Shown: one piece after another, positions 5,136 through 29,029 of the stretch
Layout of the letters: every line of letters starts with the position of its first letter
Position numbering within the stretch: position 1 is the stretch's first letter
Assembly: GCF_018336915.1 (NCBI RefSeq)
Contig: NZ_CP064923.1
Location: 4,110,001-4,142,000, forward strand
From: Acaryochloris marina S15
Lineage (GTDB): Bacteria > Cyanobacteriota > Cyanobacteriia > Thermosynechococcales > Thermosynechococcaceae
Direction: 5' to 3'
DNA: 32,000 nucleotides
Program-made: the position numbers and the translations under genes
The notes under the pieces: generated by a model
What the model saw: only the letters and a program-made list of their open reading frames with translations
What the model was told of the DNA's origin: nothing
Databases searched by the model: none

Positions 5136-5220
5136 ATTCAATCGCTATTGCCTATGCTGCAACATGCAGCTCAATCTTCAACGAACAATCATCATTAATT
5201 ATTAAATAGAGGAGTGTAGG

Positions 5221-7272: not shown

Positions 7273-7287
7273 ATTCATACTCTATCT

Positions 7288-7359
7288 ACACAAACCTAAT
7301 CTAACAGCGAAGCCCATCATGTTTGTATGATGGGCTTCGCTGTTAGATTAGGTTTGTGT
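7288..7359. terminator. 33-bp perfect inverted repeat with a 6-nt loop between convergent pilQ and rpe; a likely bidirectional terminator or palindromic element
   Basis: The left arm 7288-7320 (acacaaacctaatctaacagcgaagcccatcat) is the exact reverse complement of the right arm 7327-7359. The loop is gtttgt at 7321-7326. It starts 16 nt after the pilQ stop and ends 67 nt before the rpe stop. Confidence 0.6.
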
Positions 7360-7425
7360 GCTTAGCTAAACAGAGGGTTGTACACTGTTGCTCAACCAGA
7401 GATGCGGCCCCGTAGCTGGTTTGAT

Positions 7426-8133
7426 TTATACTGTCACTAATTCTGGTTCAGACCGCTTGCTGTTACGGATAGCTTCGATAGTTGTGGCATAGTCATCAGC
7501 CTTGAACACAGCTGATCCAGCCACAATGGCATTAGCCCCAGCTTCCAAAACTTGCCAAGAATTGTTGGCTTTTAGGCCACCATCGACTTCAATCCAAGGA
7601 TCTAGTCCACGCTCATCACACATTTGACGAAGCTTACGAATCTTGGGTAGCACTCCTGGAATGAAGCTTTGGCCGCCAAATCCAGGGTTAACACTCATGA
7701 TCAAAACCAAATCGCAAAGTTCTAAAACATAATCAATTTGATCTAAAGAAGTGCCAGGATTCAAAACGACTCCCGCCATTTTGCCTAACTCTTTAATTTG
7801 ACCTAAAGCTCGATGGAGATGGGTTGTAGAGCTAGCTTCGGCGTGAACGGAAATGATGTCTGCCCCTGCTTTAGCAAAGTCGGCAACATATCGCTCAGGT
7901 TCCACAATCATCAAGTGAACATCTAAAGGCTTCTCTGTCACTGGGCGAAGAGCATCCACAATTAAAGGGCCAATGGTGATATTTGGGACAAAACGACCAT
8001 CCATAACATCTACATGAATCCAGTCCGCCCCAGCTTTATCGACGGCTCGAACTTCCTCACCTAAACGGCTAAAATCCGCAGACAGAATAGATGGAGAGAT
8101 GACGGTCGATTTGGGTGAAGAAGATAGAGTCAT
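7426..8133 (-). CDS. rpe: Ribulose-phosphate 3-epimerase
   Basis: The product is 235 aa. It has [42 protein letters not shown] and VDGGL motifs characteristic of Rpe. Confidence 0.95.
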
Positions 8134-9717: not shown

Positions 9718-9764
9718 TACTTGCACTGAGAAGACGTCAGAAGAAATGGGGAAAATGAGCGCAG

Positions 9765-11864
9765 CTAAATCTTGAGCAACCAAGCCGGGAGCTTATTATT
9801 ACCACTAATGATGACTTCACGACTATTATCAAACTCATAGATATCGCCCAGCTGGTCATGAACCGATTGGCTGACCTGAACCGTATCGCCTTCGCCGGCT
9901 GTTTGCATACGATGGGCAATATTGACCGTATCTCCCCACAAGTCATAAATAAACTTGCTGCGACCGACAATACCCGCCACCACAGCTCCAGAATTGATGC
10001 CGACTCGGGCTCGCAATGCAGTTTGATGGGTTTGATTGAACCGCTGGACAATACGGGTAATCTCAATACCAAAGTCCATAATCCGTTTGGTATGGTCCAG
10101 TCGGGGAACAGACAGACCACAAACGGCCATATAGCCGCTACCAATCGTTTTAATCTTTTCTACACCGAAGCGTTCAGCAGCTTCGTCAAAGGCGCGGACT
10201 AGCTCATTGAGTAAAGCTACAATTTCACTGGCAGGCAGTATTTCTGCTAAATCAGTGAATCCAATTAAGTCTGCAAATAACACCGTGACATTGGCATAGC
10301 TATCGGCAATTTGCTCCTCACCACTTTTTAAGCGTTGGGCAACCGGTTCAGGCAAAATACAAGAGAGCAATTGCTCATTTTCCTGGCTTTGTAGTTCTAA
10401 CGCTTGGGTTTTATTAGATAAACTTTCCACCATTTGGTTGAAAGAAACCGCCAAATCATGGAACTCATCTTGAGAACTGACAGAGACAGTGACGTCGGTA
10501 TTGCCTTCACTGAGGTGCCGAAAACCCGTAATCAAGGTTTGGATAGGCTTTACAAACAAACGGGATAGAAAAAGCGCCAGAACAGTGATCACCAAGATCA
10601 AAATTGCGGTTGAAATCAGGACTTGCTTCTGAAATTCGGTAATGGGAGCAAAAGCTTCGTCTGCATCCATTTCAGCCAAGATGGCCCAGTCCAGACCTTT
10701 GACTTGGAGGGTACTATAGGAGCTGAGAACAGGAATTCCCCGATAATCATCAATAATATCGATACCCGAATTACCTAGCAGGGCTCGCTGAGCTGCAATT
10801 GTTTTGACTTCTTGCTCCAAAATTGAGTTCTTCTGCCGCCGCATTCGCTCAATTTGTTGAGATTCGAGACCACTTTTGGCCAAGGATTGAAAATAGTTGG
10901 AAGAGTTTTCTAATAAGAAACGAGAATTAGACCGCAACAGAAAATCTGAGCCAACTAAATAAGTTTCCCCACTCGTCCCTAGACCCATTTCTTGCCACCG
11001 TTGACCGTTGGTCATGACTTCGTCAATCTTCTTGATATTGACCTGAAGAGCCATCACGCCAATCAGTTCTCCTCCCTCGAATAAAGGGCTGGCAATAATG
11101 GCAGCGGGACTATTAAGAGAGGGGCGATAGGGTTCAAAATCTGTGAAGGTTACGAACTTAGGCTCTCCTTTACGAACGACCTCCCGGAATGCTTGGGCTA
11201 AGACACTTTGAGAATAGGGACCTGACTCTAAATCAGTACTAAAATCAACCCCTTTATAGGTGCTGTAGACGACTTTGCCAGATTTAGGATCGATCAAAAA
11301 CAGATCTTCATAGGTGAATTCTGAGACTAAAGAGCGGAATGCTGGATGATATCGTCGATGCACTTGGGTATATTTGCTACCATCGCCTGGATCATCAATT
11401 TGGACTTTTTCGTCAAAATCCGGCGTTTTAATGGTGTAGTGATACTGCAAATAGACATCACTATTGCCCAAAGGCAAATAGGTTTGGACCTGGGGTTCCC
11501 CAGCTATATTGGCGTCTAAGGGCTGGATAAATTCTTTTTGGTAATAGGCTTGAATCGCTGGCTGCCACTGGCTTGGAATTTTTTTGGAATTAAGTTCCTG
11601 GTGGGCTTGCTTAAACGCTTTCATGGCCTCTTTGGTGGTGGGATTACCACTGAGAAAGCGCATTTGGCGGTTCAGTTGATCAAAGAATGATCGCACCTCA
11701 TAGCTTTTAGTAGTGCGTAAGCTGGTGAGCTGGTTAAAAATACGGCGGGTTAACGCAGCTTTACCGCTGTTGTAACCAATAAAAGCAATTACTAGGATTG
11801 AGCTTACGCTGACCCCTAGGAACATCAGGGTCAATTTAGATTGAATACTTAACTTCTTCAGCAC
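9765..11864 (-). CDS. Membrane-bound class III adenylate/guanylate cyclase-domain protein: TM, extracytoplasmic Cache-like sensor, TM, HAMP, cyclase homology domain
   Basis: The N-terminal TM is LMFLGVSVSSILVIAFIGY. A roughly 380-aa extracytoplasmic region carries Cache-like strings (PAAIIASPLFEGGELIGVMALQV; DYRGIPVLSSYSTLQVKGLDWAILAEM). The second TM is ISTAILILVITVLALFLSRLF. The HAMP is VKPIQTLITGFRHLSEGN...FHDLAVSFNQMVESL. The cyclase domain is VTVLFADLIGFT...EKIKTIGSGYMAV...YDLWGDTVNIAHRMQ. The ORF-track start at 11894 is TTG. GTG at 11864, 9 nt after AGGAAG, is my preferred start, but it is uncertain. Confidence 0.85.
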   Translation of the reverse strand: MLKKLSIQSKLTLMFLGVSVSSILVIAFIGYNSGKAALTRRIFNQLTSLRTTKSYEVRSFFDQLNRQMRFLSGNPTTKEAMKAFKQAHQELNSKKIPSQWQPAIQAYYQKEFIQPLDANIAGEPQVQTYLPLGNSDVYLQYHYTIKTPDFDEKVQIDDPGDGSKYTQVHRRYHPAFRSLVSEFTYEDLFLIDPKSGKVVYSTYKGVDFSTDLESGPYSQSVLAQAFREVVRKGEPKFVTFTDFEPYRPSLNSPAAIIASPLFEGGELIGVMALQVNIKKIDEVMTNGQRWQEMGLGTSGETYLVGSDFLLRSNSRFLLENSSNYFQSLAKSGLESQQIERMRRQKNSILEQEVKTIAAQRALLGNSGIDIIDDYRGIPVLSSYSTLQVKGLDWAILAEMDADEAFAPITEFQKQVLISTAILILVITVLALFLSRLFVKPIQTLITGFRHLSEGNTDVTVSVSSQDEFHDLAVSFNQMVESLSNKTQALELQSQENEQLLSCILPEPVAQRLKSGEEQIADSYANVTVLFADLIGFTDLAEILPASEIVALLNELVRAFDEAAERFGVEKIKTIGSGYMAVCGLSVPRLDHTKRIMDFGIEITRIVQRFNQTHQTALRARVGINSGAVVAGIVGRSKFIYDLWGDTVNIAHRMQTAGEGDTVQVSQSVHDQLGDIYEFDNSREVIISGNNKLPAWLLKI
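9795..10292 (-). other. Class III cyclase homology domain (approximate bounds)
   Basis: It spans ANVTVLFADLIGFTDLAE through GDTVQVSQSVHDQL. The motifs are listed in the parent CDS. Confidence 0.8.
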
Positions 11865-12379
11865 TCGTGGAGTCTTCCTCAGACAATCGGTCAAGGTCTT
11901 GCACTTGGCTTGTTTTTACCATGCTTCGTACCGTTTATGGCTGAAAAATCTTGTTTTTGCTACGACTGTAGAGATATTGGAGTTAAATTCTGAAAGAAGG
12001 GAATCTTAGAGTTATCGAAATCGACTTTATCGTCAGGCTGATAACATCCGTTTTTCAACATTATGTGCCTATCCTCAAAAAGCTTCATCTCGCCTGATCC
12101 TTATCCAACAATGCATTTCAGCCAAATGTTATCCATATATTTAGCCAGATTCAAGTCTTTAGACTTTATGTATCTTTACTTAACAAGGACTTAATTTGTA
12201 CTTTCTTATACTATATTTAAGTTAAGAAAAGATAACCTTAAGCACTGTTGCCAGACAGTCTGATTTGGTGCGCAAACTTGTGATTTGGGAAGTGCTAACA
12301 ACTTCAAAAGCAACTAAGTTTGCAATGGCTCAAGGGTATTTAGAACGCAGTTTTGGAGTTGTGAGGATAACGCGACGTG

Positions 12380-14092
12380 ATGCAGCAACAACTCATGTCA
12401 TCCCCGCTTGCTAATGGCGCACTGCAGCGATATGACGCCCGTAAGATCGCATCTTACTACCGCTGGCGTCCTTGGCAAGCTCTCTGGCGTTTATTCAACA
12501 TTATTTGGTTATTTGGTGGGTTTGTTTGGGGTCTGCTATGGGACCGATGGACGAACAATAGTGCGGCCCATTCTCTTCAACGGGCCATTCAAATTCGTAA
12601 AATCCTGACACGGTTAGGCCCCACCTTCATTAAAGTGGGGCAGGCTCTATCCACACGCCCTGATCTCATCCCCAAAGAATTCCTGACGGAGCTGATGTTG
12701 CTCCAAGACCAGTTGCCTCCTTTCCCGAATGACAAAGCCTTTGCCTTAATTGAATCTGAACTGCGTCAGCCCATCCGTGAGATTTATCAAGAAATTTCGG
12801 CAAAGCCCGTCGCGGCCGCCAGTTTAGGACAGGTTTATCGAGGTCGATTGTTTACGGGCGAAGAGGTGGCTATTAAGGTCCAACGCCCAAATCTAAGGCC
12901 AAAGCTGACATTGGATCTCTATCTAATGCGGCAGATGGCGGCTTCGTTTGGGCGATTTCTACCCCTCAATTTGGGCCATGACTTAACGCTAATTGTGGAC
13001 GAGTTCGGCACCAAACTGTTTGAAGAGATTGACTATATCAATGAAGGGCAAAATGCCGAGCGGTTTGCGGAAAACTTCAAAGAGTATCCTGCGGTTGAAG
13101 TGCCTGGAATTCACTGGGCTTACAGTAGCAAGAAAGTCCTGACCCTGCAGTGGATAAATGGTTTTAAGCTAACCGATAGTCAATGCGCAGTGGATGCCAA
13201 TATGGACCCGGATCGCCTGGTGCAGATTGGTGTGATTTCTAGTTTGCGTCAACTGCTGGAGTTTGGATTTTTCCATGCCGATCCACATCCTGGCAATCTC
13301 TTTGCCACGTCTCAAGGCAGTATGGCCTATGTAGATTTTGGCATGATGGATCAGCTCGATCAACCTACCAAAAATACGTTGGTAGATGCGGTCGTTCATT
13401 TGGTCAACAAAGACTATGAATTGTTAGCATCTGACTTTGTAAAGCTAGGCTTTCTTACCCCTGAGACCGATATCCGGCCCATTATCCCAGCATTGGAAGA
13501 TGTCTTTGATGACATCATTGGGGCAAAGGTCGGCGATTTCAATTTCAAAACCATTACGGATCGGTTCTCGGAGTTGATGTATGACTATCCTTTCCGAGTT
13601 CCAGCTAAGTTTGCTCTGATCATCCGATCTTTGGTTACCCAAGAAGGGGTCGCCCTGTGCCTTAATCCCGACTTCAAAATTCTGGAAGTCAGCTATCCCT
13701 ATGTAGCTCAACGCTTACTCGCTGGAGAAACGCCTGACTTTCAGCGTCGCTTACTAGAAGTGCTGTTTAAGGACGGGAAGTTCCAATGGCAGCGCTTGGA
13801 GAACCTGATTGCGATCGCACAAACGGATCAGAGTTTCGATCTCATTCCCACCGCCCGCTTAGGCATGCAGTTCTTAATGTCTGATGAGGGAGATTACTTA
13901 CGTCGTCAGGTGGTCTTGGCCTTGATCGAAGATGATCGACTGCATACCGAAGAAGTTGAGCGGCTGTGGAACTTAATTAAGGACGATTTGAAGCCAGAGA
14001 AGTTGTTTAATGTGGCCTTAGGGGCCTTGGCCGAATTCTCTGACTCCAACCTTCCCGAGTGGCTACCTCGTCCCCCCCTACCTATTTCCTAA
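12380..14092 (+). CDS. ABC1/UbiB(AarF)-family atypical protein kinase
   Basis: Motifs present are KVGQALSTRPDLIP, PVAAASLGQVYRGRL, AIKVQRP, FFHADPHPGNL and YVDFGMM. GTG at 12377 is immediately followed by ATG at 12380, and either could be the start. Confidence 0.9.
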   Translation: MQQQLMSSPLANGALQRYDARKIASYYRWRPWQALWRLFNIIWLFGGFVWGLLWDRWTNNSAAHSLQRAIQIRKILTRLGPTFIKVGQALSTRPDLIPKEFLTELMLLQDQLPPFPNDKAFALIESELRQPIREIYQEISAKPVAAASLGQVYRGRLFTGEEVAIKVQRPNLRPKLTLDLYLMRQMAASFGRFLPLNLGHDLTLIVDEFGTKLFEEIDYINEGQNAERFAENFKEYPAVEVPGIHWAYSSKKVLTLQWINGFKLTDSQCAVDANMDPDRLVQIGVISSLRQLLEFGFFHADPHPGNLFATSQGSMAYVDFGMMDQLDQPTKNTLVDAVVHLVNKDYELLASDFVKLGFLTPETDIRPIIPALEDVFDDIIGAKVGDFNFKTITDRFSELMYDYPFRVPAKFALIIRSLVTQEGVALCLNPDFKILEVSYPYVAQRLLAGETPDFQRRLLEVLFKDGKFQWQRLENLIAIAQTDQSFDLIPTARLGMQFLMSDEGDYLRRQVVLALIEDDRLHTEEVERLWNLIKDDLKPEKLFNVALGALAEFSDSNLPEWLPRPPLPIS

Positions 14093-18388: not shown

Positions 18389-18625
18389 TGGTGGACCTAG
18401 GTTGCTGTCAAGAAAGATAAGTGAAGAAAAAGAGTTCTCGTATTCAATATCAATATAATTTCAATCTAGGTCAAGGATAACTGGGTGAATATAGTTTTTG
18501 ACTTTAGACCATGAGGTTACCTTAGAATATCGCGAGTCGTTCGGAATCTCTACAGTTTAATTCTACCAAGTGAGAATAATCCCAGGAGGATGAAAGGTGT
18601 CTTACAGGCTACGTTTTCCAACAGC

Positions 18626-18976
18626 TTAGGGAGAAGAGCGATCGTTCTTGAGAAATAGTTCATAAGAAATATAGGCAATCGAGCCGATCATAATGGCCAT
18701 CGCCAGCCACATCGCAATTTTTACCGCCACCACGACTGCCACAACAACAGCAAGGAATTTACCGACATTGACCATTTTGCGGAGGGTACGTTTAAAGGAT
18801 GATTTGGTGGGGGGAACATCCGTCACCACTTCTACTTCACGGGCCGCTGAAGGAGCCCCTTCAGGCTTGCCATAGACTTCTGATTCCAGTTCTCGCAACC
18901 GGACACTCATTTCTCGTTCTTTAAGTTCTTGTTCCCGACGTCGTAAATCTTCTTCTGGATTTTGATTCGAAGTCAT
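18626..18976 (-). CDS. Hypothetical small membrane protein (charged coiled-coil N-terminus, C-terminal TM segments)
   Basis: It has an ATG start and is 116 aa. EEDLRRREQELKEREMSVRLRELESE is followed by FLAVVVAVVVAVKIAMWLAMAIMIGSIAYISY. I recognise no family. Confidence 0.55.
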   Translation of the reverse strand: MTSNQNPEEDLRRREQELKEREMSVRLRELESEVYGKPEGAPSAAREVEVVTDVPPTKSSFKRTLRKMVNVGKFLAVVVAVVVAVKIAMWLAMAIMIGSIAYISYELFLKNDRSSP

Positions 18977-19211
18977 AACAATAGTGAGGATAAGCTAAAA
19001 ATTAATGGGCTTGAACAATGGCTTTGGGGCCAACAATAGCCTTGAGAATGCAATCTACCTGCTTTCCTTAGATTGCCCAAATTCAGCACTTTTGAAAACA
19101 GAAGAATCGAGTCAGAAATACTGAGAGATTGATAACAGCATTGAACATAATCTACAGGAATAAGTATCAATCGCTAGCATAAAGTATGGATATCGAAATC
19201 AAAGGGTTTGC

Positions 19212-20390
19212 ATGTCGACTCGAATCAAACAGCTTGCTGAAACACTCTCTCCTCGACTGATTGAGATTCGGCGTCATCTGCACAGTTACCCAGAGTTAAG
19301 TGGTCAGGAATATCAAACGTCTGCTTATGTCGCCGGCATTCTATCTTCCTATGGGTTGCATGTTCGGGAGGGAGTGGGCAAAACAGGGGTGATCGGTGAA
19401 TTAAAAGGAGAAGGAGACGATTCTCGGCAGCTCGCCATTCGCACGGATATGGATGCCCTGCCCATCCAAGAAATGACTCAGCTAGAGTTTTCCTCTCGCA
19501 AGCCAGGGGTGATGCATGCCTGTGGCCATGATATTCACACCACCATTGGCTTGGGCACCGCCATGGTGTTGTCGGCTATGCAGGATCAGATTCCGGGCAA
19601 GCTCCGCTTTCTGTTCCAACCCGCAGAAGAAATTGCCCAAGGGGCTAGATGGATGGTGGCAGATGGGGCGATGGAAAACGTTGATGCGATTTTGTCAGTG
19701 CATGTATTTCCGAGTGTTCCGGCTGGATCGGTCGCAGTAAGATATGGGGCCCTAACAGCAGCAGCCGATAACTTAGAGATTACGATTATGGGAGAAGCGG
19801 GTCACGGAGCCCGCCCCCATGAAGCAGTGGATGCAATCTGGATTGCGGCCCAGGTGATCACAACCCTACAACAGGCCATTAGCCGCACCCAGAATCCTTT
19901 ACGTCCGGTCGTATTAACCATTGGTCAAATGAAGGGAGGACGGGCTCCAAATGTGATTGCGGATCAGGTCCAAATGCAGGGAACAGTGAGATCCCTGCAT
20001 CCAGAAACCCGAGCACAACTCCCCCAGTGGATTGAAGATATTGTCGCCAGCGTCTGCCGTCCCTACGGTGCCCGCTACCATGTGGATTATCAAGCGGGGG
20101 TGCCGTCAGTGCATAATACGGCTAGCTTGACCCAGTTAATCGAAACGGCCGCCCAAGACGTTTGCGGTAGCCACAATGTACGAGTCCTCACGGAGCCCTC
20201 TCTGGGGGCAGAAGATTTCTCCCTTTATTTGGAGCATGCCCCCGGCGCCATGTTCCGCCTAGGGGTGGGGAAGGCCGACCAGGCCAATCCCCCCCTCCAT
20301 CACCCCCAGTTTGAAGCTCAAGAATCTGCTATTGTCACAGGGGTAATGACGATGGCCAATGCTGCTCTGAACTATTGGCAGCAGGTCTAG
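19212..20390 (+). CDS. M20-family amidohydrolase (N-acyl-L-amino-acid amidohydrolase/hippurate-hydrolase type, M20D)
   Basis: Motifs are LIEIRRHLHSYPELSGQEYQTS, IRTDMDALPI, MHACGHDIHT, FQPAEE and HHPQF. These are typical of the ILR1/AmhX/HipO amidohydrolase group. Confidence 0.9.
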   Translation: MSTRIKQLAETLSPRLIEIRRHLHSYPELSGQEYQTSAYVAGILSSYGLHVREGVGKTGVIGELKGEGDDSRQLAIRTDMDALPIQEMTQLEFSSRKPGVMHACGHDIHTTIGLGTAMVLSAMQDQIPGKLRFLFQPAEEIAQGARWMVADGAMENVDAILSVHVFPSVPAGSVAVRYGALTAAADNLEITIMGEAGHGARPHEAVDAIWIAAQVITTLQQAISRTQNPLRPVVLTIGQMKGGRAPNVIADQVQMQGTVRSLHPETRAQLPQWIEDIVASVCRPYGARYHVDYQAGVPSVHNTASLTQLIETAAQDVCGSHNVRVLTEPSLGAEDFSLYLEHAPGAMFRLGVGKADQANPPLHHPQFEAQESAIVTGVMTMANAALNYWQQV

Positions 20391-21226
20391 GACTGGAGAT
20401 CGAAGTGGAGACAGAAGAACAACTTGCCCCCCAACGGAAGGGTCGCCTGATTTCACAGGTTCTCACCCCAGCGATCAAATTGTGGTTGCGATCGCAACTT
20501 GATCACATCGATGATCTCCAACTTCAAATCGACAGCGGCAATCGTGAACTGCTATCAGGCTCAATCCCGAAAGTATTTCTATCAGCAGCCCAAGCCGTAT
20601 ATCAAGGCATTCACCTCAGCCGCGCCCAAGTCATTGCTGAAAATATCAGTACTAACTTCCGGCAGGTCCTACGAGGCAAAGCGATTCGGCTCTTAGAACC
20701 CCTATCCATTCAACTTGATGCGGCCCTGACCTCTGCAGATCTAGCGGCATCGACCGACTCGGAACTCTTCCAAAAAGCGATGAAGTTGGGGTTGGTGCCT
20801 CTGATTGAACAACAGCTGAGTGGGGTGTCTGACTGGCCCTTCCCTAGCTGGCAGCCTGGGGCTACACCCGAGATTCAATTATCAGCCGTGCGGATGGAAC
20901 TGAGTTGCGATGGCCGAAGGCCGGTTGGAAACCATCGCATCCAGATACAGGCTCAAGTCCAACATCCCATAACCGAAAAACTGCAAGCTATTGTCTTGGA
21001 CACAGGGTTAGTCCTCGTCAACCCCCATGAGTTGCGTCTAGAGCAGCCTCAGGGGTTCTATCCACCCGCCAATCAGCCCATTCCATTGACCCACCTGCAT
21101 GACTTTAGGTTTGATCTAGGGACCGATGTCCAACTCACCATCCTGCAAATTACAGAAGCAGCCATTCTTTGTCAGGGGACAATTAAAATCATGCCTGTCC
21201 AAGCTGAAGAATCAGCCCTAGACTGA
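20375..21226 (+). CDS. Hypothetical protein, possibly DUF2993/LmeA-like
   Basis: The frame is 283 codons. There is no ATG near the 5' end. Candidate starts are TTG at 20375 (a 16-nt overlap with the M20 gene) or GTG at 20405. The string LWLRSQLDHIDDLQLQIDSGNRELLSGSIPKVFLSAAQAVYQGIHLSRAQVIAENISTNFRQVLRGKAIRLLEP resembles cyanobacterial DUF2993 proteins as I remember them. The family call is tentative. Confidence 0.55.
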   Translation: MAAGLGLEIEVETEEQLAPQRKGRLISQVLTPAIKLWLRSQLDHIDDLQLQIDSGNRELLSGSIPKVFLSAAQAVYQGIHLSRAQVIAENISTNFRQVLRGKAIRLLEPLSIQLDAALTSADLAASTDSELFQKAMKLGLVPLIEQQLSGVSDWPFPSWQPGATPEIQLSAVRMELSCDGRRPVGNHRIQIQAQVQHPITEKLQAIVLDTGLVLVNPHELRLEQPQGFYPPANQPIPLTHLHDFRFDLGTDVQLTILQITEAAILCQGTIKIMPVQAEESALD

Positions 21227-21261: not shown

Positions 21262-22047
21262 ATGACCTACTGTTTAGGCGTCATCACCCGCTATGGGCTG
21301 ATTATGGCAGCTGATTCCCGCACCAATGCAGGGGTTGATTATGTTTCGACAGCCCAAAAATTATTTGATCTCTCTCGTCCTGGAGAGCGAGTGATACTCG
21401 TCTGTACTGCGGGAAATTTGTCTATGACCCAAAGTGTACTGACGTTAATTCGGCGCGATCGCAAAGCAGGAGTTCAGGGCAATATTAACGAACTCACCAC
21501 CATGTACGACGTTGCCCATTACTTCGGTGAAAAAACGCGCCAAGTCCTCGATCAACACCAAGATTGGCTGCAAAAAGACAACATTAGTGCCAACTGTAGT
21601 TTTTTAGTGGGGGGCCAGATTAAAGGCGAATTGCCAGAACTCTATATGGTCTACAGCCAAGGCAATTTTCTGCGCGCTACACGCAACTCGCCTTTTTTAC
21701 AAATTGGTGAAATCAAGTATGGGAAACCGATACTCGATCGCATCATTAATTATGACGAGACCTCCCTAGATGCCGCCGCTAAATGCACCCTGCTCTCCCT
21801 AGATTCGACGATGAAGTCCAATATTTCTGTAGGCCCCCCCATCAATATGGCCATGTATGAAGCCGATACCCTGAAAGTCGGATATCGGCTCAAATTGGAA
21901 CGGGGTGACCCCTATTTATTGCGCTTACGGAAATCTTGGGAAACCTCTCTCCGGCAAGCCTTCAAGAAACTGCCAGACCTAGCTTGGCATGACAACGAAG
22001 ACCAAGACCAAGATAATCATCTGGTGATGACGGATATCTTGCCTTAG
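21262..22047 (+). CDS. Anbu-type proteasome-beta-like peptidase (Ntn hydrolase, T1 family)
   Basis: The N-terminus MTYCLGVITRYGLIMAADSRTNAGVDYVSTAQKLF places Thr directly after the initiator Met with no propeptide. Counting Thr as residue 1, Asp is at position 17 and Lys at position 32. This is the pattern of 'ancestral beta subunit' (Anbu) proteins. It neighbours the ATP-grasp/alpha-E/transglutaminase genes that typify Anbu loci. Confidence 0.85.
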   Translation: MTYCLGVITRYGLIMAADSRTNAGVDYVSTAQKLFDLSRPGERVILVCTAGNLSMTQSVLTLIRRDRKAGVQGNINELTTMYDVAHYFGEKTRQVLDQHQDWLQKDNISANCSFLVGGQIKGELPELYMVYSQGNFLRATRNSPFLQIGEIKYGKPILDRIINYDETSLDAAAKCTLLSLDSTMKSNISVGPPINMAMYEADTLKVGYRLKLERGDPYLLRLRKSWETSLRQAFKKLPDLAWHDNEDQDQDNHLVMTDILP

Positions 22048-22066
22048 GATTCCTCTTGATCAAACA

Positions 22067-22624
22067 TTAGGATTTGTCGGTAATTTTAAACGAAGTGAGG
22101 AACTTGGTCGCCTTATCGTCAAATGCCTTGCCGGTATTTTCGCCCATGGCTAGCACTTGATAGAGTCGGTTGCCGGAGAAGCAGAATTTACCAGCCATGG
22201 AGGCATCCTTAGACTTATACTTACCCGTTGCCTGAAAGTCCCGACAAGGAACGCCATTCACCTCTGTTTCTTTCTCATTACTAACCTTGCCATTAATACT
22301 GGATGCAACTGCACCTTTGATGGCAGTAGACATCAATTGCTGGATGGGGATAGGGGGTTTGGCATCGCCGGGAAATTCCATAAAGGCCACCACAAAAGCC
22401 TCTTTCCCTAAATCAAGTTGCGCAATTTCCATATTCAGCTTTTCTCCGCCAGGAGCAGGAATGGCTTTCGTTTCTTCTTTAGGAGTACCTGGCATCGAAA
22501 CCGAATATTTCCCTTGCGTAGAAGAGTAGTCCTTCCAAGCTGCAGAACTGCAAGCGCTAATCGTCAAAGCAGTCATTCCACCCAAGATGGAAAGGGCAGT
22601 AAAGGACGTTCCCTTATTTCTCAT
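22067..22624 (-). CDS. Hypothetical lipoprotein
   Basis: ATG at 22624 gives MRNKGTSFTALSILGGMTALTISAC-SS, which is a signal peptide plus a lipobox Cys. I recognise no family for the mature part. Confidence 0.7.
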   Translation of the reverse strand: MRNKGTSFTALSILGGMTALTISACSSAAWKDYSSTQGKYSVSMPGTPKEETKAIPAPGGEKLNMEIAQLDLGKEAFVVAFMEFPGDAKPPIPIQQLMSTAIKGAVASSINGKVSNEKETEVNGVPCRDFQATGKYKSKDASMAGKFCFSGNRLYQVLAMGENTGKAFDDKATKFLTSFKITDKS

Positions 22625-22768
22625 GTACAAAAATCTCCCAAAGTTTTGAGCACAAGCTCGTCGTTACTCAGTATGACCAGTTTGCCTAGCATCCTGACAG
22701 ATGCCAGTGATGAATACAGATTTCGTGGGTGGAAGAGTTCACGAGGGATCATTCTCTACCAGGGCACT

Positions 22769-23608
22769 TCATTGGCTATGGACAGAGACCCTATAGGTAG
22801 GGATAGGACTACTGTTTCCGCCCCGCAGACTGCCTGAGATGGGTTGAGTTTGCTGGGGCCAAGCACTCACCATCACCGCCACATGGCGATCACAAACGAC
22901 TAAACCCATAGTGGGATCGTAGCCTCGCCAGCCTGCTCCTGGTAAATAGACTTCGGCCCAAGCATGAAGGGTTTGCTCTTGACTTGGCTCCCCCGCCTCA
23001 TAACCACTGACAAAGCGGGTCGCTAACCCCATGCCGCGACAAGCAGCCATAAATAGCCAGACAAAGTCTCGGCACGTTCCCTGTTTTTGCTGCCAAGTCA
23101 GCCAAGGAGGCTGGGGTTGCCCCGTTTCTCGGGTTTGGTATTGGCAAGATTGATTAATTTGTAAATTAAGTTGGGTCAGGAAGTTGATCACATTGCTATC
23201 TACCGCCATTGCAATCTCCTGAGCAAGCTGGGTAGCAACCGCATCTAAATCAGAGTAGAGATAGGGATACAGAATGGCCTTAAGGGAACTGGGATAGTCA
23301 ACGGGAAAGTGCGTTGCCCAGGAGTCCAATAAATAGTTAAAGGGGTTGGTGCAAGTCGTTATCACCTCGGATGTTGCGGTCACTTGCAGCGTGGTCAATG
23401 GGGTTTCTGGCCACCAGCAACGCATCACCGTATTCCCTTCCGCATCTAAAGCCTGGTTTAACCCCATCGGCTCAGGCACAATCTGCAGATCAAAATTGGA
23501 GACCTGCTGCTCCCCCATACTCCGAGGACGAAGCCGCAAAAGATGTGGCCCCAATTCGGCGGCCTGAGGATAGGTATAGGTCGTGGCATGAACAATCGTA
23601 AAATGCAC
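22769..23608 (-). CDS. Transglutaminase-family protein (Bact_transglu_N plus transglutaminase core)
   Basis: It starts with GTG. The N-terminus (V)HFTIVHATTYTYPQAAELGPHLLRLRPRS is typical. The catalytic Cys is in QGTCRDFVWLFMAACRGMGLATRFVSGY, His in HAWAEVYLPGAGW and Asp in GYDPT. It begins 4 nt after the alpha-E stop. Confidence 0.9.
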   Translation of the reverse strand: MHFTIVHATTYTYPQAAELGPHLLRLRPRSMGEQQVSNFDLQIVPEPMGLNQALDAEGNTVMRCWWPETPLTTLQVTATSEVITTCTNPFNYLLDSWATHFPVDYPSSLKAILYPYLYSDLDAVATQLAQEIAMAVDSNVINFLTQLNLQINQSCQYQTRETGQPQPPWLTWQQKQGTCRDFVWLFMAACRGMGLATRFVSGYEAGEPSQEQTLHAWAEVYLPGAGWRGYDPTMGLVVCDRHVAVMVSAWPQQTQPISGSLRGGNSSPIPTYRVSVHSQ

Positions 23609-23612
23609 AAGT

Positions 23613-24596
23613 TTAAGACTGAGATTGAATTTGTAGATGGGTGTGGACAGGACGGCGATCCAAAAAGGTTTTAAAGATTTCCTGATCCACTTGATTCATC
23701 TGCTGTTGCAATCGATCCAAAAATTGATGCATTCCTCCCTCAATAATTTCTTCAACCGTTAGAAACTCTAATTCGGAGCGCAAACGGCCAATGGACCGTT
23801 CCGCAGGGTTGCACCAGGATCCTAAAGGACTGCCGGAGACTAAATGCAAAGACCGTTCGACCTGAACCGCACAAAATCGAATAGAACGGGGAAAATCTGG
23901 ATCAAGGATCAGAAAATCTGCCACCTCTGCGGGGGTAATTAAGTGCCGATTGCTGCGTTTACGATACATTTCATAGGCACTGGTGGATTTTAACAGGGCA
24001 ATCCAGCCTAATTCATCAATCGGAGTTCCCATATGCTGAAGGGACGGCAAGAGCATAAAGTATTTGACATCCAGGATACGGGAAGTTTTATCTGCCCGTT
24101 CTAATAAGCGTCCCATTTGGCCAAAATGCCAGCCCTCATTATGGGAAATGGTCGCGTCCATAATCCCGGCAAAGAGGTGGCTGGCCTGCCTTACTTCTTC
24201 CAAAAATTGGTTCAGATCGGCCAAAGCTAAATCGTCTGCCGTATTGGCCACCAGCAAATAAAAGGCATTAACATGCTGCCACATTTCTGTGGAGATCACT
24301 TCTCGCACCGATCGAGCATTTTCTCTGGCTTTTTGTAAACAAGAGATCAAGGAATTGGGATATTGATGGTCAAAGGTGAGGAACTTAATGACGTTTTCAG
24401 CATTGGCTTCCCCATAGTGCTGCTCAAAGAAATCTTTATCCCCGGTGGTGGCAACTAGGGGCTGCCACTGCTGCTGCACCCGGGTCGGCAGATCCAAAAT
24501 TAAGTTGAGATTGACCTCTAGGAAACGAGCAACATTTTCGGCTCTCTCAATGTAGCGATTGAGCCAAAAGATAGAATCGGCAACACGACTAAGCAT
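23613..24596 (-). CDS. Alpha-E domain protein (DUF403 family)
   Basis: ATG at 24596 gives MLSRVADSIFWLNRYIERAENVARFLEVN, the canonical alpha-E start. It overlaps the ATP-grasp gene by 8 nt (ATGCTTAG). The ORF-track extension to 24638 is unlikely. Confidence 0.9.
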   Translation of the reverse strand: MLSRVADSIFWLNRYIERAENVARFLEVNLNLILDLPTRVQQQWQPLVATTGDKDFFEQHYGEANAENVIKFLTFDHQYPNSLISCLQKARENARSVREVISTEMWQHVNAFYLLVANTADDLALADLNQFLEEVRQASHLFAGIMDATISHNEGWHFGQMGRLLERADKTSRILDVKYFMLLPSLQHMGTPIDELGWIALLKSTSAYEMYRKRSNRHLITPAEVADFLILDPDFPRSIRFCAVQVERSLHLVSGSPLGSWCNPAERSIGRLRSELEFLTVEEIIEGGMHQFLDRLQQQMNQVDQEIFKTFLDRRPVHTHLQIQSQS

Positions 24597-26034
24597 TTTC
24601 CTCCGGGCATAGTACCCATGTATCTTTAGAGCCCCCACCTTGTGACGAATTCACGACGAGTGATCCTTTCTTTAAGGCCACTCTTGTTAATCCTCCTGGA
24701 TGGACATAAATGTCCTGGCCGTAGAGGATATAGGGGCGCAAATCAACATGACATCCAGAAAATTCCTCTCCCAAGATGGTCGGGACTCTGGAAAGACAAA
24801 GGGTTGGTTGCGCAATGTAGTTGCGAGGATTGGCACGAATACGCTGGGCAAACTCCTGGCGTTCTGCCTCGGTGGATTGGGTGCCAATCAGCATGCCATA
24901 TCCCCCAGATTCATTCGCAGCCTTGACCACTAGCTGATCGAGGTTGGCAAGAACATGCTTGAGCTGTTGGTCCTCCCAGCATAAGTAGGTGGGGACATTG
25001 GCCAGAATTGGATCTTCACCTAAATAGTATTTGATCATGTCCGGGACGTAGGCATAGATGACTTTATCATCAGCAATACCGGTTCCAGGGGCATTTGCGA
25101 TCGCAACTCGTCCCGCCCGATACACCTCCATCAATCCCGGTATCCCCAAGTGAGAATCAGGCCGAAAGGCAGTGGGGTCCATAAAATCATCATCCAGGCG
25201 ACGATAAATAACGTCTACCTGCTGTAACCCCTTGGTCGTCTGCATTTGCAGATAGCCATCCACCACAACTAAATCGCGCCCTTCCACCAGCTCAATCCCC
25301 ATCTGCTGAGCAAGATAGGAATGTTCAAAGTAAGCAGAGTTATAAATACCAGGCGTGAGGACGACGACGGTTGGGCTGCTAATGGTGTTCGGTGACAAGT
25401 GGATCAAAGTCGCCAATAAGCGGCTAGGGTACTCATCCACTGGCTGAATTGGAATTTCTTTGAAAATTTGAGGGAAGGTACTTTTCATCACCTGCCGATT
25501 TTCGAGGACATAGGAAATTCCAGATGGGCAGCGCAAGTTATCTTCCAGCACGTACCATTGACCATCATTGTCTCGGACTAAGTCAGTGCCCGTAATATGG
25601 CACCAAACGTCCTTGGCCGGTTTTAGACCGATGCAAGGCGACAAATATCCCTTGGCAGACAGGATCAGCTCCTCAGGAATGACCTTATCCTTCAGAATCT
25701 TCTGGTCGTTGTAAATATCATCAATAAACAAATTGAGAGCATGAATACGCTGCTTTAGGCCCTGCTCTAAGAACGTCCAATCTTGAGCAGAAATGACCCT
25801 CGGAATCACATCAAACGGGAAAATCCGCTCAGTTCCTTCCGTTTCACCATAGACATTGAATGTTGCCCCTAGCTTGAACAACGCCTCCTGAGCAGCCCGT
25901 TGACGTTGTAATAGTTCTCCCTCAGGCAAACCATGAATTTTGTCTACCAGAACTTGTCCTTGGGGACGAGGAGTTTGTCCACTCTGGAAAAGCTCATCAT
26001 AGAAATGCTCAGGGTCATAAGTATCAAATCGCAA
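24589..26034 (-). CDS. Circularly permuted type-2 ATP-grasp protein (DUF404/DUF407 family amidoligase)
   Basis: The product is 481 aa with a TTG start at 26034. Family-typical strings are ERIFPFDVIPRVISAQDWTFLEQGLKQRIHALNLFIDDIY, RCPSGISYVLENR, VVLTPGIYNSAYFEHSYLAQQMGIELVEGRDL and VDVIYRRLDDDFMDP. It is the first gene of a three-gene operon. Confidence 0.9.
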   Translation of the reverse strand: MRFDTYDPEHFYDELFQSGQTPRPQGQVLVDKIHGLPEGELLQRQRAAQEALFKLGATFNVYGETEGTERIFPFDVIPRVISAQDWTFLEQGLKQRIHALNLFIDDIYNDQKILKDKVIPEELILSAKGYLSPCIGLKPAKDVWCHITGTDLVRDNDGQWYVLEDNLRCPSGISYVLENRQVMKSTFPQIFKEIPIQPVDEYPSRLLATLIHLSPNTISSPTVVVLTPGIYNSAYFEHSYLAQQMGIELVEGRDLVVVDGYLQMQTTKGLQQVDVIYRRLDDDFMDPTAFRPDSHLGIPGLMEVYRAGRVAIANAPGTGIADDKVIYAYVPDMIKYYLGEDPILANVPTYLCWEDQQLKHVLANLDQLVVKAANESGGYGMLIGTQSTEAERQEFAQRIRANPRNYIAQPTLCLSRVPTILGEEFSGCHVDLRPYILYGQDIYVHPGGLTRVALKKGSLVVNSSQGGGSKDTWVLCPEENA

Positions 26035-26206
26035 AGAGCTGCCCCATAGACGCTATAAAGCCTGGTGGTATCTTACTGGCAACTTGATATCCCGAAACTG
26101 TATGTTTCGATACCTAGATACTGAAACATCCTAAAATTCTTTTTTTTGCTCTGAGTCACTCCAAATTCAAATCGCGCCCCAGTTTGCACAGAGATAGCCT
26201 CCAGAC

Positions 26207-29029
26207 TTATTTTGTGGGCAGGGGCTGGGGTTTACCCATGGCATACCCTTGTAGATAGTCAACACCGATTTTTTCAAGCGCAACAATTGTGTCTCCATTC
26301 TCTACAAACTCAGCGATAGTCTTGATTTGCATCGCTCGACAAATCTGATTAATGGCTGACACCATCACTTGATGGGTTGTATCTTCCACCATATCTCTCA
26401 CTAAGCTGCCATCAATTTTTAAATAATCAATGGGAAAACGTTTGAGATAGGAAAAGGATGAGAATCCACTACCAAAATCATCCAGCGCAAAGTGACAGCC
26501 AAACTCTTTCATTTTCTCGATAAATTGAATCGCTTGCTTAAAGTTGCTAATTGCTACAGTTTCTGTGATTTCAAAGCAAATCTTGTGGGGTTCAAGCTGA
26601 GTTTTATGCAGTTGCTTTTGGACAAAATCCAGCAAAGCGTCATCGTTGAGAGAGCTACCCGACAGATTGATAGAAATGCGAGTATTCTCCTGGCTCTGAA
26701 AGTAAGCGCCATACTTGACCAAAACATTTTCGATCACCCATTTATCAATCTCTAACATCAACCCATATCGTTCCGCAGCAGGGAGAAAACTGCCTGGCAG
26801 AAGAATTTTGCCGTCTGGATCTTGCAAGCGGAGCAAGATTTCATAACAAACTGGAATCTTAGTCTCTGTATCTAGAGGAACAATGGGCTGATAATAGAGG
26901 CGAAATCGGCTTTCTTCTAAAGCTTTACGAATAGTCGCCACCTGCATCAATTCGCTGTGTTGTTCCGTTACCCCTTGGGCCTGAGCATAGTAAATATGAA
27001 CACGATTACGACCCCGATCTTTAGCTGCGTAGCAAGCAACATCCGCTTTTGCGAATAGCAGGGTTAGATTGTCGGTATCTGCAGTAATCGGCACGATCCC
27101 AATACTGGCACCAATCTTAAAGAGTTGGCCTTCCCAGATAAAGCGAAATTGAGAGAGTTCAGAGATGAGGTTTTCTGTGACAATTCGAGCTTTGTCTAAG
27201 GAGCAGTTCTTCAGCAATAAGCCAAATTCATCTCCCCCCAAACGGCTAAGAATATCGGTCTGACGAATATGAGCCTGCAACAAATCCGCGACCTGCTTTA
27301 AGAGAGTATCCCCTGCCAGGTGGCCCACGGTATCATTGACAATCTTGAACTGATCTAAGTCTAGATAACAAAGCGCATGGTGAATTTGACTAGACTGTTT
27401 CTGCTCGATAATCTGATTGAGCTGATGCTCAAACTCTCGACGATTAACCAGCCCAGTCAGAGAATCATGGGTAGCCTGGTGCGATAACTGTTGTGATAAT
27501 GAATGCGCTTCTGTAATATCCTGACCAATCCCTCGATAACCACAGAAGACACCTTGAGGGCTCAAGACAGGTCTGCCAATCATTCTCAGAATTCGAGCAT
27601 TCCCATTCAGATGCTGACACTCTATTTCAACATCGAAAGGCTCTAATAAATCTAGAGTTTGGTTAAGCTGATCCCAGGCCGTGGGTTGAAACACAGCATA
27701 GAAATCCAAGCAAGATTTCCCGATCCACACTTCGATGGGAGATCCCGTCAAAGAACAATGCTGCTCTGATAAATAGGTAAATCTTAATTCTGCATCCGTT
27801 TCCCAAAACAAGTCTGCTCCAATAGCAGCAAAGTCATGGAACCGCTGTTGGCTTTCACGCAGGGCTTCTTCTGTATCTTTAAGGACGGTGATATCGCGAG
27901 AAGAAATTGCCGCACCAATAATTTGTTCTTGTTGATTGCGAAACGGAACATATTCAATATCGAAATACCGTGTTTCATCAAGAGAGGGAAACCAATGCTG
28001 CCGTCGAACTTTTTCCCCAGCAAAACATCGATCTAGATCTGGCTTAATAATTTCTTGGAAGAAGTGCTGGCCATGAATATCTGCAATGTGCTGGCCAGAT
28101 ATATCCGTTGTCGCCTTATGAAATTTTTCAGTGTACTGGGGGTTCGCGGCCAAGTATGCATAGCAGGTATCGACTAGTGCCATATAACTACCAGCAGAGT
28201 TAAAAATAGTTTCGTATTGGCGGAGCCGTTCCTCAGTTTCTTTTTGTTGGGTAATATCCGTCTGAATTCCGACTAAAAAATGCACCTCACCTTGAGCATT
28301 CGTTAGGGGTTTGATCCGTAATAAATTCCAAAAAGGTTGCCCCGTTTTTCGGTAGTTAAGAATTTCCCCTTCGAAGGTCTGATCATTGTTGAGGGCCTGG
28401 CGAATCCCCTCGACTGTATTGGCATCTGTTTTAGGACCTTGGAGAAAACGACAGCTATTTCCAATCACTTCATCGGGCGTGTATCCGGTGAACTGATAGA
28501 AACTAGGGCTCGCAAAAATCACGGGAAATCCAGGAACAGTGGCGTCTGCAATGACAATGCCATCATTGGCTGTTTCTGCAGCTAAGGCTCTCAGATATAG
28601 TGTTGCCTTTTGCAAGTCCTGGTCAGGATGGATGTATTGGAGCTTAAGACAAAAACTTTTGTCTTCTGGATTGCTGCCATGCACGGACGTTACTGTATAT
28701 AAGCAAGGTAACTTTTGAGCCTTAGCATTTTGATGGGTAGCTTCAAAATGAAAGACTTCCAGATCACCTTGAAGTAACTGCTGTAATTGGGTGCCAAACT
28801 CTGTGAACAGTGCAAGTTGGGAAATATCTTGGTAATGGCTGCCAATCAATTCACAGACAGAAATATTGATAATTTTACAGAAGGTGGCATTGACTTGCTG
28901 AAAATGTCCACTGGCAGAAATGATGGCAATACCTAAATCACTCAATGCAGATTGTGATATGTCTAATTCCAAGGCCTCAGTTCCTGGGGATAAACAAGGT
29001 GAGTGAGTAGCCATGCTGTGGGAATTCAT
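26207..29029 (-). CDS. Multidomain c-di-GMP signalling protein: PAS-like, LOV, PAS, PAS, GGDEF, EAL
   Basis: The product is 940 aa. The LOV core is GNSCRFLQGPKTD...FLVGIQTDIT. The GGDEF domain has LSRLGGDEFGLLL, preceded by HDSLTGLVNRREF. The EAL domain has YYQPIV, CYEILLRL, NLSG, EITE, ALDDFGSGFSSFSYL, KIDGSLV, IAEFVEN and LQGY. Confidence 0.9.
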   Translation of the reverse strand: MNSHSMATHSPCLSPGTEALELDISQSALSDLGIAIISASGHFQQVNATFCKIINISVCELIGSHYQDISQLALFTEFGTQLQQLLQGDLEVFHFEATHQNAKAQKLPCLYTVTSVHGSNPEDKSFCLKLQYIHPDQDLQKATLYLRALAAETANDGIVIADATVPGFPVIFASPSFYQFTGYTPDEVIGNSCRFLQGPKTDANTVEGIRQALNNDQTFEGEILNYRKTGQPFWNLLRIKPLTNAQGEVHFLVGIQTDITQQKETEERLRQYETIFNSAGSYMALVDTCYAYLAANPQYTEKFHKATTDISGQHIADIHGQHFFQEIIKPDLDRCFAGEKVRRQHWFPSLDETRYFDIEYVPFRNQQEQIIGAAISSRDITVLKDTEEALRESQQRFHDFAAIGADLFWETDAELRFTYLSEQHCSLTGSPIEVWIGKSCLDFYAVFQPTAWDQLNQTLDLLEPFDVEIECQHLNGNARILRMIGRPVLSPQGVFCGYRGIGQDITEAHSLSQQLSHQATHDSLTGLVNRREFEHQLNQIIEQKQSSQIHHALCYLDLDQFKIVNDTVGHLAGDTLLKQVADLLQAHIRQTDILSRLGGDEFGLLLKNCSLDKARIVTENLISELSQFRFIWEGQLFKIGASIGIVPITADTDNLTLLFAKADVACYAAKDRGRNRVHIYYAQAQGVTEQHSELMQVATIRKALEESRFRLYYQPIVPLDTETKIPVCYEILLRLQDPDGKILLPGSFLPAAERYGLMLEIDKWVIENVLVKYGAYFQSQENTRISINLSGSSLNDDALLDFVQKQLHKTQLEPHKICFEITETVAISNFKQAIQFIEKMKEFGCHFALDDFGSGFSSFSYLKRFPIDYLKIDGSLVRDMVEDTTHQVMVSAINQICRAMQIKTIAEFVENGDTIVALEKIGVDYLQGYAMGKPQPLPTK
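28244..28597 (-). other. LOV (light-oxygen-voltage, flavin-binding PAS) domain, approximately residues 145-262
   Basis: The domain reads GIVIADATVPGFPVIFASPSFYQFTGYTPDEVIGNSCRFLQGPKTDANTVEGIRQALNNDQTFEGEILNYRKTGQPFWNLLRIKPLTNAQGEVHFLVGIQTDIT. The adduct-forming Cys codon TGT is at 28451-28453 on the minus strand. Confidence 0.8.

Follow-up and report, generated by a model that had tools for sequence, protein, structure and literature searches.

A conserved NtcA-type box precedes the ATP-grasp/alpha-E/transglutaminase-like cassette facing Anbu in Acaryochloris marina S15

A 32-kb stretch of the Acaryochloris marina S15 genome (hereafter the window, whose positions serve as coordinates throughout) carries a gene for the proteasome-like protein Anbu, which converges with a cassette of three minus-strand genes encoding a circularly permuted ATP-grasp protein, an alpha-E protein and a transglutaminase (TGase)-like protein. 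The Anbu four-gene system is already known, and in this locus it takes an ordinary cyanobacterial form; what the analysis chiefly adds is a conserved NtcA-type box, recognized by comparison of promoter sequences, that precedes the cassette. We place roughly even odds (a probability of about 0.5) on the reading that the module carries out nitrogen-starvation-induced ligation and hydrolysis of peptides or amides.

The box, GTATCGAAACATAC, is a perfect match to GTAN8TAC and lies 65 nt before the ATP-grasp start codon, within the 172-bp region between this gene and the upstream PAS-GGDEF-EAL gene; the −10-like hexamer TAAGAT follows 24 nt downstream, and a transcription start is predicted near 26063. 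Alignment of four Acaryochloris promoters revealed TAAGAT in every one of them and conservation from the box through the −10-like element to the start codon, with divergence further upstream; the box occupies the same place in A. marina MBIC11017 (locus L001), Bin.148 (L002) and an uncultured Acaryochloris (L004). Each of the 10 available cyanobacterial genome loci has a perfect box ahead of its ATP-grasp gene, at a distance of 54–81 nt from the start codon in nine of them and of 145 nt in the uncultured L007, and in other lineages TAT-type or CAAGAT-type hexamers stand 22–24 nt past it. The background frequency of 1.1 × 10−4 sites per bp corresponds to about 0.01 chance occurrences per lineage in a 100-nt band, and at least six independent lineages carry the box; in L004, L019 and L021 it is the sole GTAN8TAC site in 11–21 kb. 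As a negative control, 80 metagenome ATP-grasp loci were scanned for a box within 250 nt upstream and binned by the identity of their ATP-grasp protein to that of the window; the box was present in 7 of the 15 loci with 69% identity or more and in 1 of about 65 loci with 68% or less, the latter being probably non-cyanobacterial.

The window as a whole holds three perfect GTAN8TAC sites. The second, GTACTTTCTTATAC (12198–12211), is intergenic between the divergent adenylate-cyclase (9765..11894, minus strand) and ABC1-kinase (12377..14092, plus strand) genes, and the third (301–314) falls inside an open reading frame (ORF). No conserved box was detected upstream of Anbu in the 15 loci checked. 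A one-mismatch site, GTATCAATCGCTAG, located 34 nt before the start of the M20 amidohydrolase gene that lies upstream of Anbu, is conserved among close Acaryochloris; it was discounted as it breaks the critical AC and lies in a region that is conserved as a whole.

Canonical NtcA-activated class II promoters include those of glnA, amt1, urt and nir (Herrero et al. 2001; PMC5714215). The cassette promoter resembles them in its GTAN8TAC palindrome followed by a TAN3T-like −10 element, and the gene set that it precedes is nitrogen-regulated in other phyla; it differs from them in its −10-like spacing (24 nt here, 22–24 nt across lineages) and in being a predicted site. No mention of a link between NtcA and genes of the Anbu module was found in the searchable literature, with supplementary regulon tables outside the search.

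The connection of the module with nitrogen limitation is experimental in Proteobacteria and predicted here. Nitrogen-limited Pseudomonas putida induced this operon more strongly than any other (Hervas 2008, cited via PMC3235984 and PMC5666114), and in a Burkholderia cenocepacia ntrC mutant the cassette genes were expressed at 6- to 9.4-fold lower levels (PMC5491218). Predicted sigma-54 regulons of Proteobacteria show an enrichment of COG3484 (PMC12316311), and in marine metagenomes domains of urea metabolism co-vary with those of the cassette (PMC3597751). On addition of reduced nitrogen to Microcystis, transglutaminase-family genes, possibly orthologues of the cassette gene, fall together with urt, nblA and glnA (PMC13485200).

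We then compared the layout of loci gathered with Anbu as the anchor. The order of the window, in which plus-strand M20, LmeA-like and Anbu genes converge on minus-strand lipoprotein, TGase-like, alpha-E and ATP-grasp genes, recurs in A. marina MBIC11017 and in L004, and Bin.148 has the same order without the lipoprotein gene. Anbu is likewise convergent on the cassette in A. thomasi, where an unrelated 239-aa (amino acid) gene lies between them, in Lyngbya confervoides (L021; 26-nt gap), Chroococcidiopsis CCMEE 29 (L024; 11-nt gap) and Trichocoleus desertorum (L025; 6-nt gap), and in L007. Here and in all linked cyanobacterial loci Anbu is thus encoded on the opposite strand, and none of these loci forms a co-directional four-gene operon. 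The split, convergent arrangement noted in the preliminary description of this DNA is not peculiar to the locus and is a recurrent cyanobacterial layout. Among the 80 metagenomic ATP-grasp loci, those that are distant and probably non-cyanobacterial have their Anbu-like genes co-directional without exception, so the inversion of Anbu looks like a cyanobacterial trait. The four-family block is kept in eight loci (L001, L002, L004, L007, L019, L021, L024 and L025) and its flanks differ in each lineage, indicating that the adjacency of Anbu and the cassette was retained through extensive rearrangement.

The same comparison also revealed that linkage of Anbu to the cassette is not general in cyanobacteria: many cyanobacterial Anbu genes are unlinked and the cassette often occurs without Anbu. 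A complete cassette is missing within 10 kb of Anbu in ten other cyanobacterial loci (in L011 an alpha-E gene lies about 9 kb from Anbu), Anbu stands alone in two complete or large cyanobacterial genome records, Leptolyngbya FACHB-261 possesses the cassette without Anbu, and the cassette genes are dispersed in Thermosynechococcus and Ca. Synechococcus calcipolaris. In Acaryochloris sp. IP29b_bin.137 (L003) it is recA (9701–10801, minus strand), not the cassette, that converges on Anbu, and a metagenome contig with a 91% identical ATP-grasp protein (L028) carries the cassette without Anbu; as each of these two loci has one half alone, Anbu and the cassette have been separated within the genus Acaryochloris.

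Stand-alone cassettes, such as I35_5080-5083 of B. cenocepacia, which is NtrC-dependent (PMC5491218), and that of Leptolyngbya FACHB-261, comprise the same three genes in the same order and, unlike the window, have no adjacent Anbu, which implies that the cassette can work without it. Several further arrangements were observed among the loci. In three distant, probably non-cyanobacterial metagenome loci (L057, L063 and L082; approximately 4000–8100) the genes for ATP-grasp, alpha-E, an Anbu-like protein and TGase follow each other on one strand, an order that differs from the ATP-grasp/alpha-E/TGase/Anbu order of the literature; the Anbu-like proteins are 27–32% identical to the window Anbu and possibly belong to Anbu-2. 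Two tandem ATP-grasp/alpha-E pairs occur in the metagenome contigs L046, L051, L077 and L083, the upstream ATP-grasp copy of L046 being 39% identical to that of the window, which suggests paralogous cassettes. In Chroococcidiopsis (L024) a second transglutaminase-like gene (4403–5248, minus strand; Bact_transglu_N_2 and Transglut_core) is divergent from the cassette, and the NtrC-dependent cluster of Burkholderia likewise contains two proteins with TGase domains (PMC5491218). Divergent from the ATP-grasp gene across the NtcA-box region, Chroococcidiopsis, Trichocoleus and Leptolyngbya encode a protein of about 185 aa (L024, 3773–4330; L025, 4736–5317; L027, 4665–5216) in which a GQQQSQ motif is combined with Met-rich repeats (MxMGNMEMRMG) and, at the C-terminus, a zinc ribbon, and whose three copies share 39–49% identity; this Gln-rich neighbour could be a candidate substrate of the transglutaminase-like enzyme, and no homologue of it was found in the window.

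The four family assignments made from the sequence in the preliminary description (Proteasome/Anbu, CP_ATPgrasp, Alpha-E and Bact_transglu_N/Transglut_core) hold against Pfam and the PDB. The Pfam Proteasome match of Anbu, at 25 bits, is barely over the cut-off; phmmer against the PDB, by comparison, matched all five distinct Anbu sequences full-length (residues 2–242; 5LOY, 8 × 10−74; 5NYW, 1.8 × 10−63; 5LOX, 6.6 × 10−61; 5NYJ, 1 × 10−56; 5NYF, 3 × 10−56), the best being the Anbu-1 consensus design 5LOY, and these full-length matches to solved structures place the protein in the Anbu clade. It is 96% identical to the protein of A. marina MBIC11017. As had been proposed, it has the features of a propeptide-less Ntn (N-terminal nucleophile) protease: the catalytic Thr comes directly after the start Met (MTYC...AADSR...QK), and Thr1, Asp17 and Lys32 of the mature protein (T2, D18 and K33 of the precursor) are invariant in 19 cyanobacterial homologues. 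Relative to the S1 pocket of the Pseudomonas aeruginosa protein (Pa-Anbu; T20, F30, T48, L52 and S55; PMC5666114), T20, T48 and L52 are kept, while position 30 is Ala here rather than Phe and position 55 is Thr; position 30 varies among cyanobacterial Anbu proteins (A, S, V, Y or H), and the predicted pocket is clearly not the basic Anbu-2 type. Beyond the core seen in crystal structures, the protein extends into an acidic C-terminal tail, HDNEDQDQDNHLVMTDILP (21985–22044; residues 242–261), and acidic tails of varying length are likewise present in cyanobacterial homologues.

In the cassette, the ATP-grasp protein (PF14403/PF04174, COG2308) matched CP_ATPgrasp_2 with 569 bits and CP_ATPgrasp_1 with 492 bits (cut-offs 32 and 23, respectively) and PDB entry 3N6X over residues 12–475 (E = 7 × 10−164), and is predicted to be an ATP-dependent carboxylate-amine ligase. 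Its identity to homologues from diverse metagenomes ranges from 63 to 91%. The alpha-E protein (COG2307), which shares 100% identity with its counterpart in Acaryochloris sp. 'Moss Beach', matched its Pfam family (PF04168) with 360 bits (residues 1–312), and E17 and R18 of its ER motif (NRYIERAEN) are invariant in 43 homologues. An AlphaFold2 model built with these homologues is all-alpha (predicted local distance difference test, pLDDT, 84.8; predicted template modelling score, pTM, 0.84). The sequence had no match in the PDB, and a Foldseek search of the model against about 350,000 PDB chains returned nothing significant (best E = 0.74; template modelling score, TM, 0.31 or less), so the fold gives no functional clue. 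The TGase-like protein (COG1305) matched Bact_transglu_N (PF08379; 79 bits) and Transglut_core (PF01841; 71 bits); in an alignment to PDB entry 3ISR, the triad region covers its Cys (GTCRDF), His (HAWAEV) and Asp (YDPT), in agreement with the intact catalytic set reported earlier. NCBIfam release 20 holds no functional model that matches the ATP-grasp, alpha-E, TGase-like or lipoprotein products.

All ORFs of the preliminary description were found in their places, and a script run on the window sequence confirmed the close junctions that it had noted. The ATP-grasp stop and the alpha-E ATG overlap by 8 nt (ATGCTTAG, 24589–24596), a 4-nt gap (ACTT, 23609–23612) separates the alpha-E stop from the TGase GTG, the TGase stop and the lipoprotein start are 138 nt apart, and the convergent stops of Anbu and the lipoprotein gene lie 19 nt from each other. 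Homologues of the ATP-grasp gene carry GTG (other Acaryochloris) or ATG (Lyngbya) at the corresponding codon, which supports its TTG start. The lipoprotein placed between the two halves of the module is a real ORF, assigned by its basic N-terminus, hydrophobic stretch and I-S-A-C lipobox and lacking any Pfam match, and it proved to be an insertion that varies between loci. L001 and L004 carry it, L002, where the TGase-like gene and Anbu converge with a 39-nt gap, lacks it, and L021, L024 and L025 have no counterpart; in other lineages a different gene or nothing stands there. It is probably a lineage-specific insertion and not part of the system.

On the opposite strand, Anbu follows the LmeA-like gene by 35 nt, and this gene in turn overlaps the M20D gene by 16 nt; the M20D protein reaches 424 bits against NCBIfam TIGR01891 (cut-off 154). 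The M20-LmeA-Anbu order is kept in five Acaryochloris loci, including L003, which has the cassette elsewhere, and the trio was not seen beside Anbu in other cyanobacteria. The M20 gene is the probable first gene of a unit that ends with Anbu. The suggestion that Anbu expression can be uncoupled from that of the other three genes gains support, as the box lies upstream of the cassette only and Anbu stands behind two genes of the opposite strand to the cassette. Neither a terminator nor a stable hairpin (z = +1.1) was predicted between the two convergent units, and the transcripts may therefore overlap at their 3′ ends.

The association of the four genes, stated in the preliminary description to be known from comparative genomics, was indeed described in 2008–2009, with cyanobacteria included. 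Valas and Bourne named Anbu in 2008, found it in cyanobacteria and noted its association with COG2308, COG2307 and COG1305 (PMC3235984), and a system for peptide synthesis or tagging was the proposal of Iyer et al. (2009; cited via PMC5666114 and PMC6376114). Fuchs et al. (2017) found Anbu to form an open, lock-washer-shaped dodecameric ring, unlike the closed 20S barrel, and Thr1 of Pa-Anbu to react with epoxomicin and MG132, but identified no substrate (PMC5666114). The open-ring dodecamer and the Thr1-dependent reaction with proteasome inhibitors apply to both Pa-Anbu and the Yersinia protein Yb-Anbu (PMC5666114, PMC6376114), and the Yersinia ATP-grasp protein releases phosphate from ATP (PMC6376114). 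The structural papers agree with the earlier statement that a substrate, tag or phenotype was never established, as they report neither peptidase activity nor stable complexes (PMC6376114, PMC5666114). Our literature search found no later functional work on the module, only the papers of 2008–2018 and a 2021 survey of proteasome homologues.

Compared with the proteobacterial Anbu operon (P. aeruginosa PA1733 region, Yersinia bercovieri and P. putida), the locus has the same four families, catalytic residues and Anbu-1 type, as well as the tight coupling of ATP-grasp, alpha-E and TGase-like genes in that order. It differs in that Anbu is inverted and convergent here and the last gene of one operon there, in its predicted control by NtcA rather than NtrC/sigma-54, and in that Anbu stands behind M20 and LmeA-like genes and a lipoprotein gene is inserted.

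On the favoured reading, the locus would be an Acaryochloris copy of the Anbu module that has been split into two transcription units. The first, on the minus strand, would comprise the ATP-grasp, alpha-E and TGase-like genes followed by the lipoprotein gene; transcribed from an NtcA-activated promoter made up of the box and the −10-like hexamer (Table 1), it should switch on when 2-oxoglutarate signals nitrogen shortage, as the cyanobacterial counterpart of the NtrC/sigma-54 induction in Pseudomonas and Burkholderia. The second, on the plus strand, would comprise the M20 amidohydrolase, LmeA-like and Anbu genes, carries no canonical NtcA box and would converge on the first with no terminator hairpin between them. 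Together, the ATP-grasp and alpha-E proteins would spend ATP on carboxylate activation and amide-bond formation, with a conserved peptide or an amino-acid derivative as the substrate; the TGase-like enzyme would hydrolyse or transfer gamma-glutamyl or peptide amide bonds, possibly with release of ammonia; Anbu would cut peptides by means of its free N-terminal Thr; and, in Acaryochloris, the M20 enzyme would trim the products to free amino acids. The purpose would be to mobilize nitrogen from proteins and peptides in starvation. The regulatory half of this reading draws on comparative sequence evidence, and the biochemical half on family chemistry together with the few in vitro results for homologues; from these we infer that NtcA binds, what the substrates are and how the enzymes share the work.

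Several observations weigh against this reading. Purified Anbu displayed no peptidase activity and the operon proteins formed no stable complexes in vitro (Piasecka et al. 2018, PMC6376114). The cassette is much commoner than Anbu and many cyanobacterial Anbu genes are unlinked, so the two halves may not share a substrate. The ATP-grasp protein, with 63–69% identity across very different bacteria, accords no less with an invariant small-molecule substrate than with peptides, the link to M20 is limited to Acaryochloris, and the 24-nt spacing between the box and the −10-like element departs from the typical value of about 22 nt.

The mycobacterial Pup-proteasome is linked to nutrient recycling in nitrogen starvation. 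A Pup-like system of tagging and degradation after Iyer et al. (2009), in which ATP-grasp and alpha-E would ligate a tag to target proteins or build an isopeptide on them, the TGase-like enzyme would prepare or remove the tag and Anbu would degrade the tagged proteins, is a rival reading that we regard as unlikely. An ATP-dependent carboxylate-amine ligase, an amidase-like Cys enzyme and a proteasome-family Thr protease are conserved together here and are formally analogous to PafA, Dop and the proteasome of the Pup system (PafA, Dop, Mpa and 20S), and induction by nitrogen starvation would fit targeted protein turnover (PMC5666114, PMC6376114). The ligase fold is nevertheless that of ATP-grasp and not the glutamine-synthetase-like fold of the Pup system, no small tag gene is conserved in the block, where the convergent gaps of L002, L021, L024 and L025 measure 6–39 nt, and no AAA+ domain was found in any window ORF of 120 aa or more. 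Encoding neither a Pup-like tag nor an unfoldase, the locus leaves the tagging-plus-degradation mechanism of the preliminary description a proposal. Furthermore, the cassette usually occurs without Anbu, and Anbu itself, unlike the closed 20S barrel of the Pup system, is an open lock-washer dodecamer (PMC5666114) with no known partner; pull-downs and co-expression with Anbu gave negative results (PMC6376114, PMC5666114).

We are equally doubtful of small-molecule amide metabolism, in which the ATP-grasp and TGase-like proteins would be a synthetase/amidase pair (compare glutathionylspermidine or gamma-glutamylation) acting on a universal nitrogen-containing metabolite, with Anbu a mere neighbour. 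The sole solved structural relative, 3N6X, was deposited as a putative glutathionylspermidine synthase, and the very strong conservation of ATP-grasp across phyla, the frequent occurrence of the cassette without Anbu and the occasional scattering of the alpha-E and TGase-like genes all agree with it. Control by NtcA or NtrC would also fit the scavenging of nitrogen compounds, as would the co-variation with urea genes cited above. On the other hand, genes for transporters, oxidoreductases or other catabolic functions are absent from the block, and the adjacency to Anbu is kept in distant cyanobacteria despite full turnover of the flanks, Anbu lying inside the operon in other phyla. We take the Mycobacterium tuberculosis genes Rv2411c-Rv2409c to be a stand-alone cassette and Rv2411c to be the mycobacterial ATP-grasp homologue. 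As a candidate, Rv2411c was negative for synthesis of GABA (gamma-aminobutyric acid)-trehalose, a result that excludes that one product only (bioRxiv 10.64898/2026.04.15.718621).

Returning to nitrogen-starvation-induced ligation and hydrolysis, a more far-reaching version of it would make the cassette a direct target of NtcA in cyanobacteria and of NtrC in Proteobacteria and, with Anbu, an ancient pan-bacterial starvation pathway, in which proteins or peptides, covalently marked or processed by ligase and amidase, would be broken down by an ancestor of the proteasome, a second, so far unrecognized route of nitrogen recycling would exist beside NblA/Clp-dependent chlorosis, and the convergent 3′ ends would time Anbu relative to the cassette; we consider this chain of claims decidedly unlikely.

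We hold it improbable that the convergent layout is itself regulatory, with an NtcA-driven cassette transcript antisense to Anbu (or the reverse) and reciprocal expression of the two halves. In its favour, 6–39 nt separate the convergent stops in five lineages, the Anbu and lipoprotein stops of the window are 19 nt from each other, neither a terminator nor a stable hairpin was predicted between the units and the NtcA box is on one side only; against it stand the purely structural nature of the evidence, the location of Anbu elsewhere in many cyanobacteria, the co-directional genes of other phyla and the fact that cyanobacterial terminators are frequently not canonical hairpins. A defence-system reading was rejected, the five locus proteins matching none of the PADLOC defence models.

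Table 1. Genes and predicted promoter elements of the Anbu locus, in window coordinates.
Feature	Position	Strand	Basis
M20D-family amidohydrolase/carboxypeptidase gene	19212..20390	+	Pfam Peptidase_M20, M20_dimer; NCBIfam TIGR01891 (amidohydrolases)
LmeA-like (DUF2993) protein gene	20375..21226	+	Pfam LmeA, 91.5 bits
Anbu, Anbu-1 type proteasome-like Ntn hydrolase, 261 aa, M-T-Y-C start	21262..22047	+	PDB Anbu matches
Lipoprotein-like ORF, 187 aa, lipobox I-S-A-C	22067..22630	−	Sequence features only
Transglutaminase-like protein, 279 aa, GTG start, Cys-His-Asp triad	22769..23608	−	Pfam
Alpha-E protein, 327 aa, ATG start	23613..24596	−	Pfam
Circularly permuted ATP-grasp, 481 aa, TTG start	24589..26034	−	Pfam
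−10-like hexamer TAAGAT (TAN3T), putative promoter element	26070..26075	−	Acaryochloris promoter alignment
NtcA-type box GTATCGAAACATAC, perfect GTAN8TAC	26100..26113	−	Motif scan and conservation

The remainder of the window is ordinary chromosome, with genes for fumarase, pilMNOQ, rpe, a cyclic nucleotide (cNMP)-gated MscS channel, an adenylate cyclase, an ABC1 kinase, a Mur ligase, a TPR protein, the PAS-GGDEF-EAL protein and a selenophosphate-synthetase-like fusion, and no mobile elements were found in it. Second-messenger genes are abundant nearby: the cNMP-binding MscS-type channel gene lies beside that of a dCache-HAMP adenylate/guanylate cyclase (8266–11894, minus strand), and the PAS-GGDEF-EAL gene (26207–29029, minus strand) is directly upstream of the ATP-grasp promoter. 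A small minus-strand ORF (approximately 18620–18977), divergent from the M20 gene, encodes by eye a charged N-terminal half followed by a hydrophobic segment.

The role of Anbu and its partners has been a question since 2008. The system at this locus is not of a new kind; the question gains modestly in testability from the conserved NtcA box, the conserved inversion and the neighbouring M20 gene. If control of the cassette by NtcA is confirmed, the module would belong to the nitrogen-starvation response of two phyla under unrelated regulators, substrate searches would be best carried out under nitrogen step-down, and each of the two halves, cassette and Anbu, could be studied on its own, their transcription having already been uncoupled in evolution.

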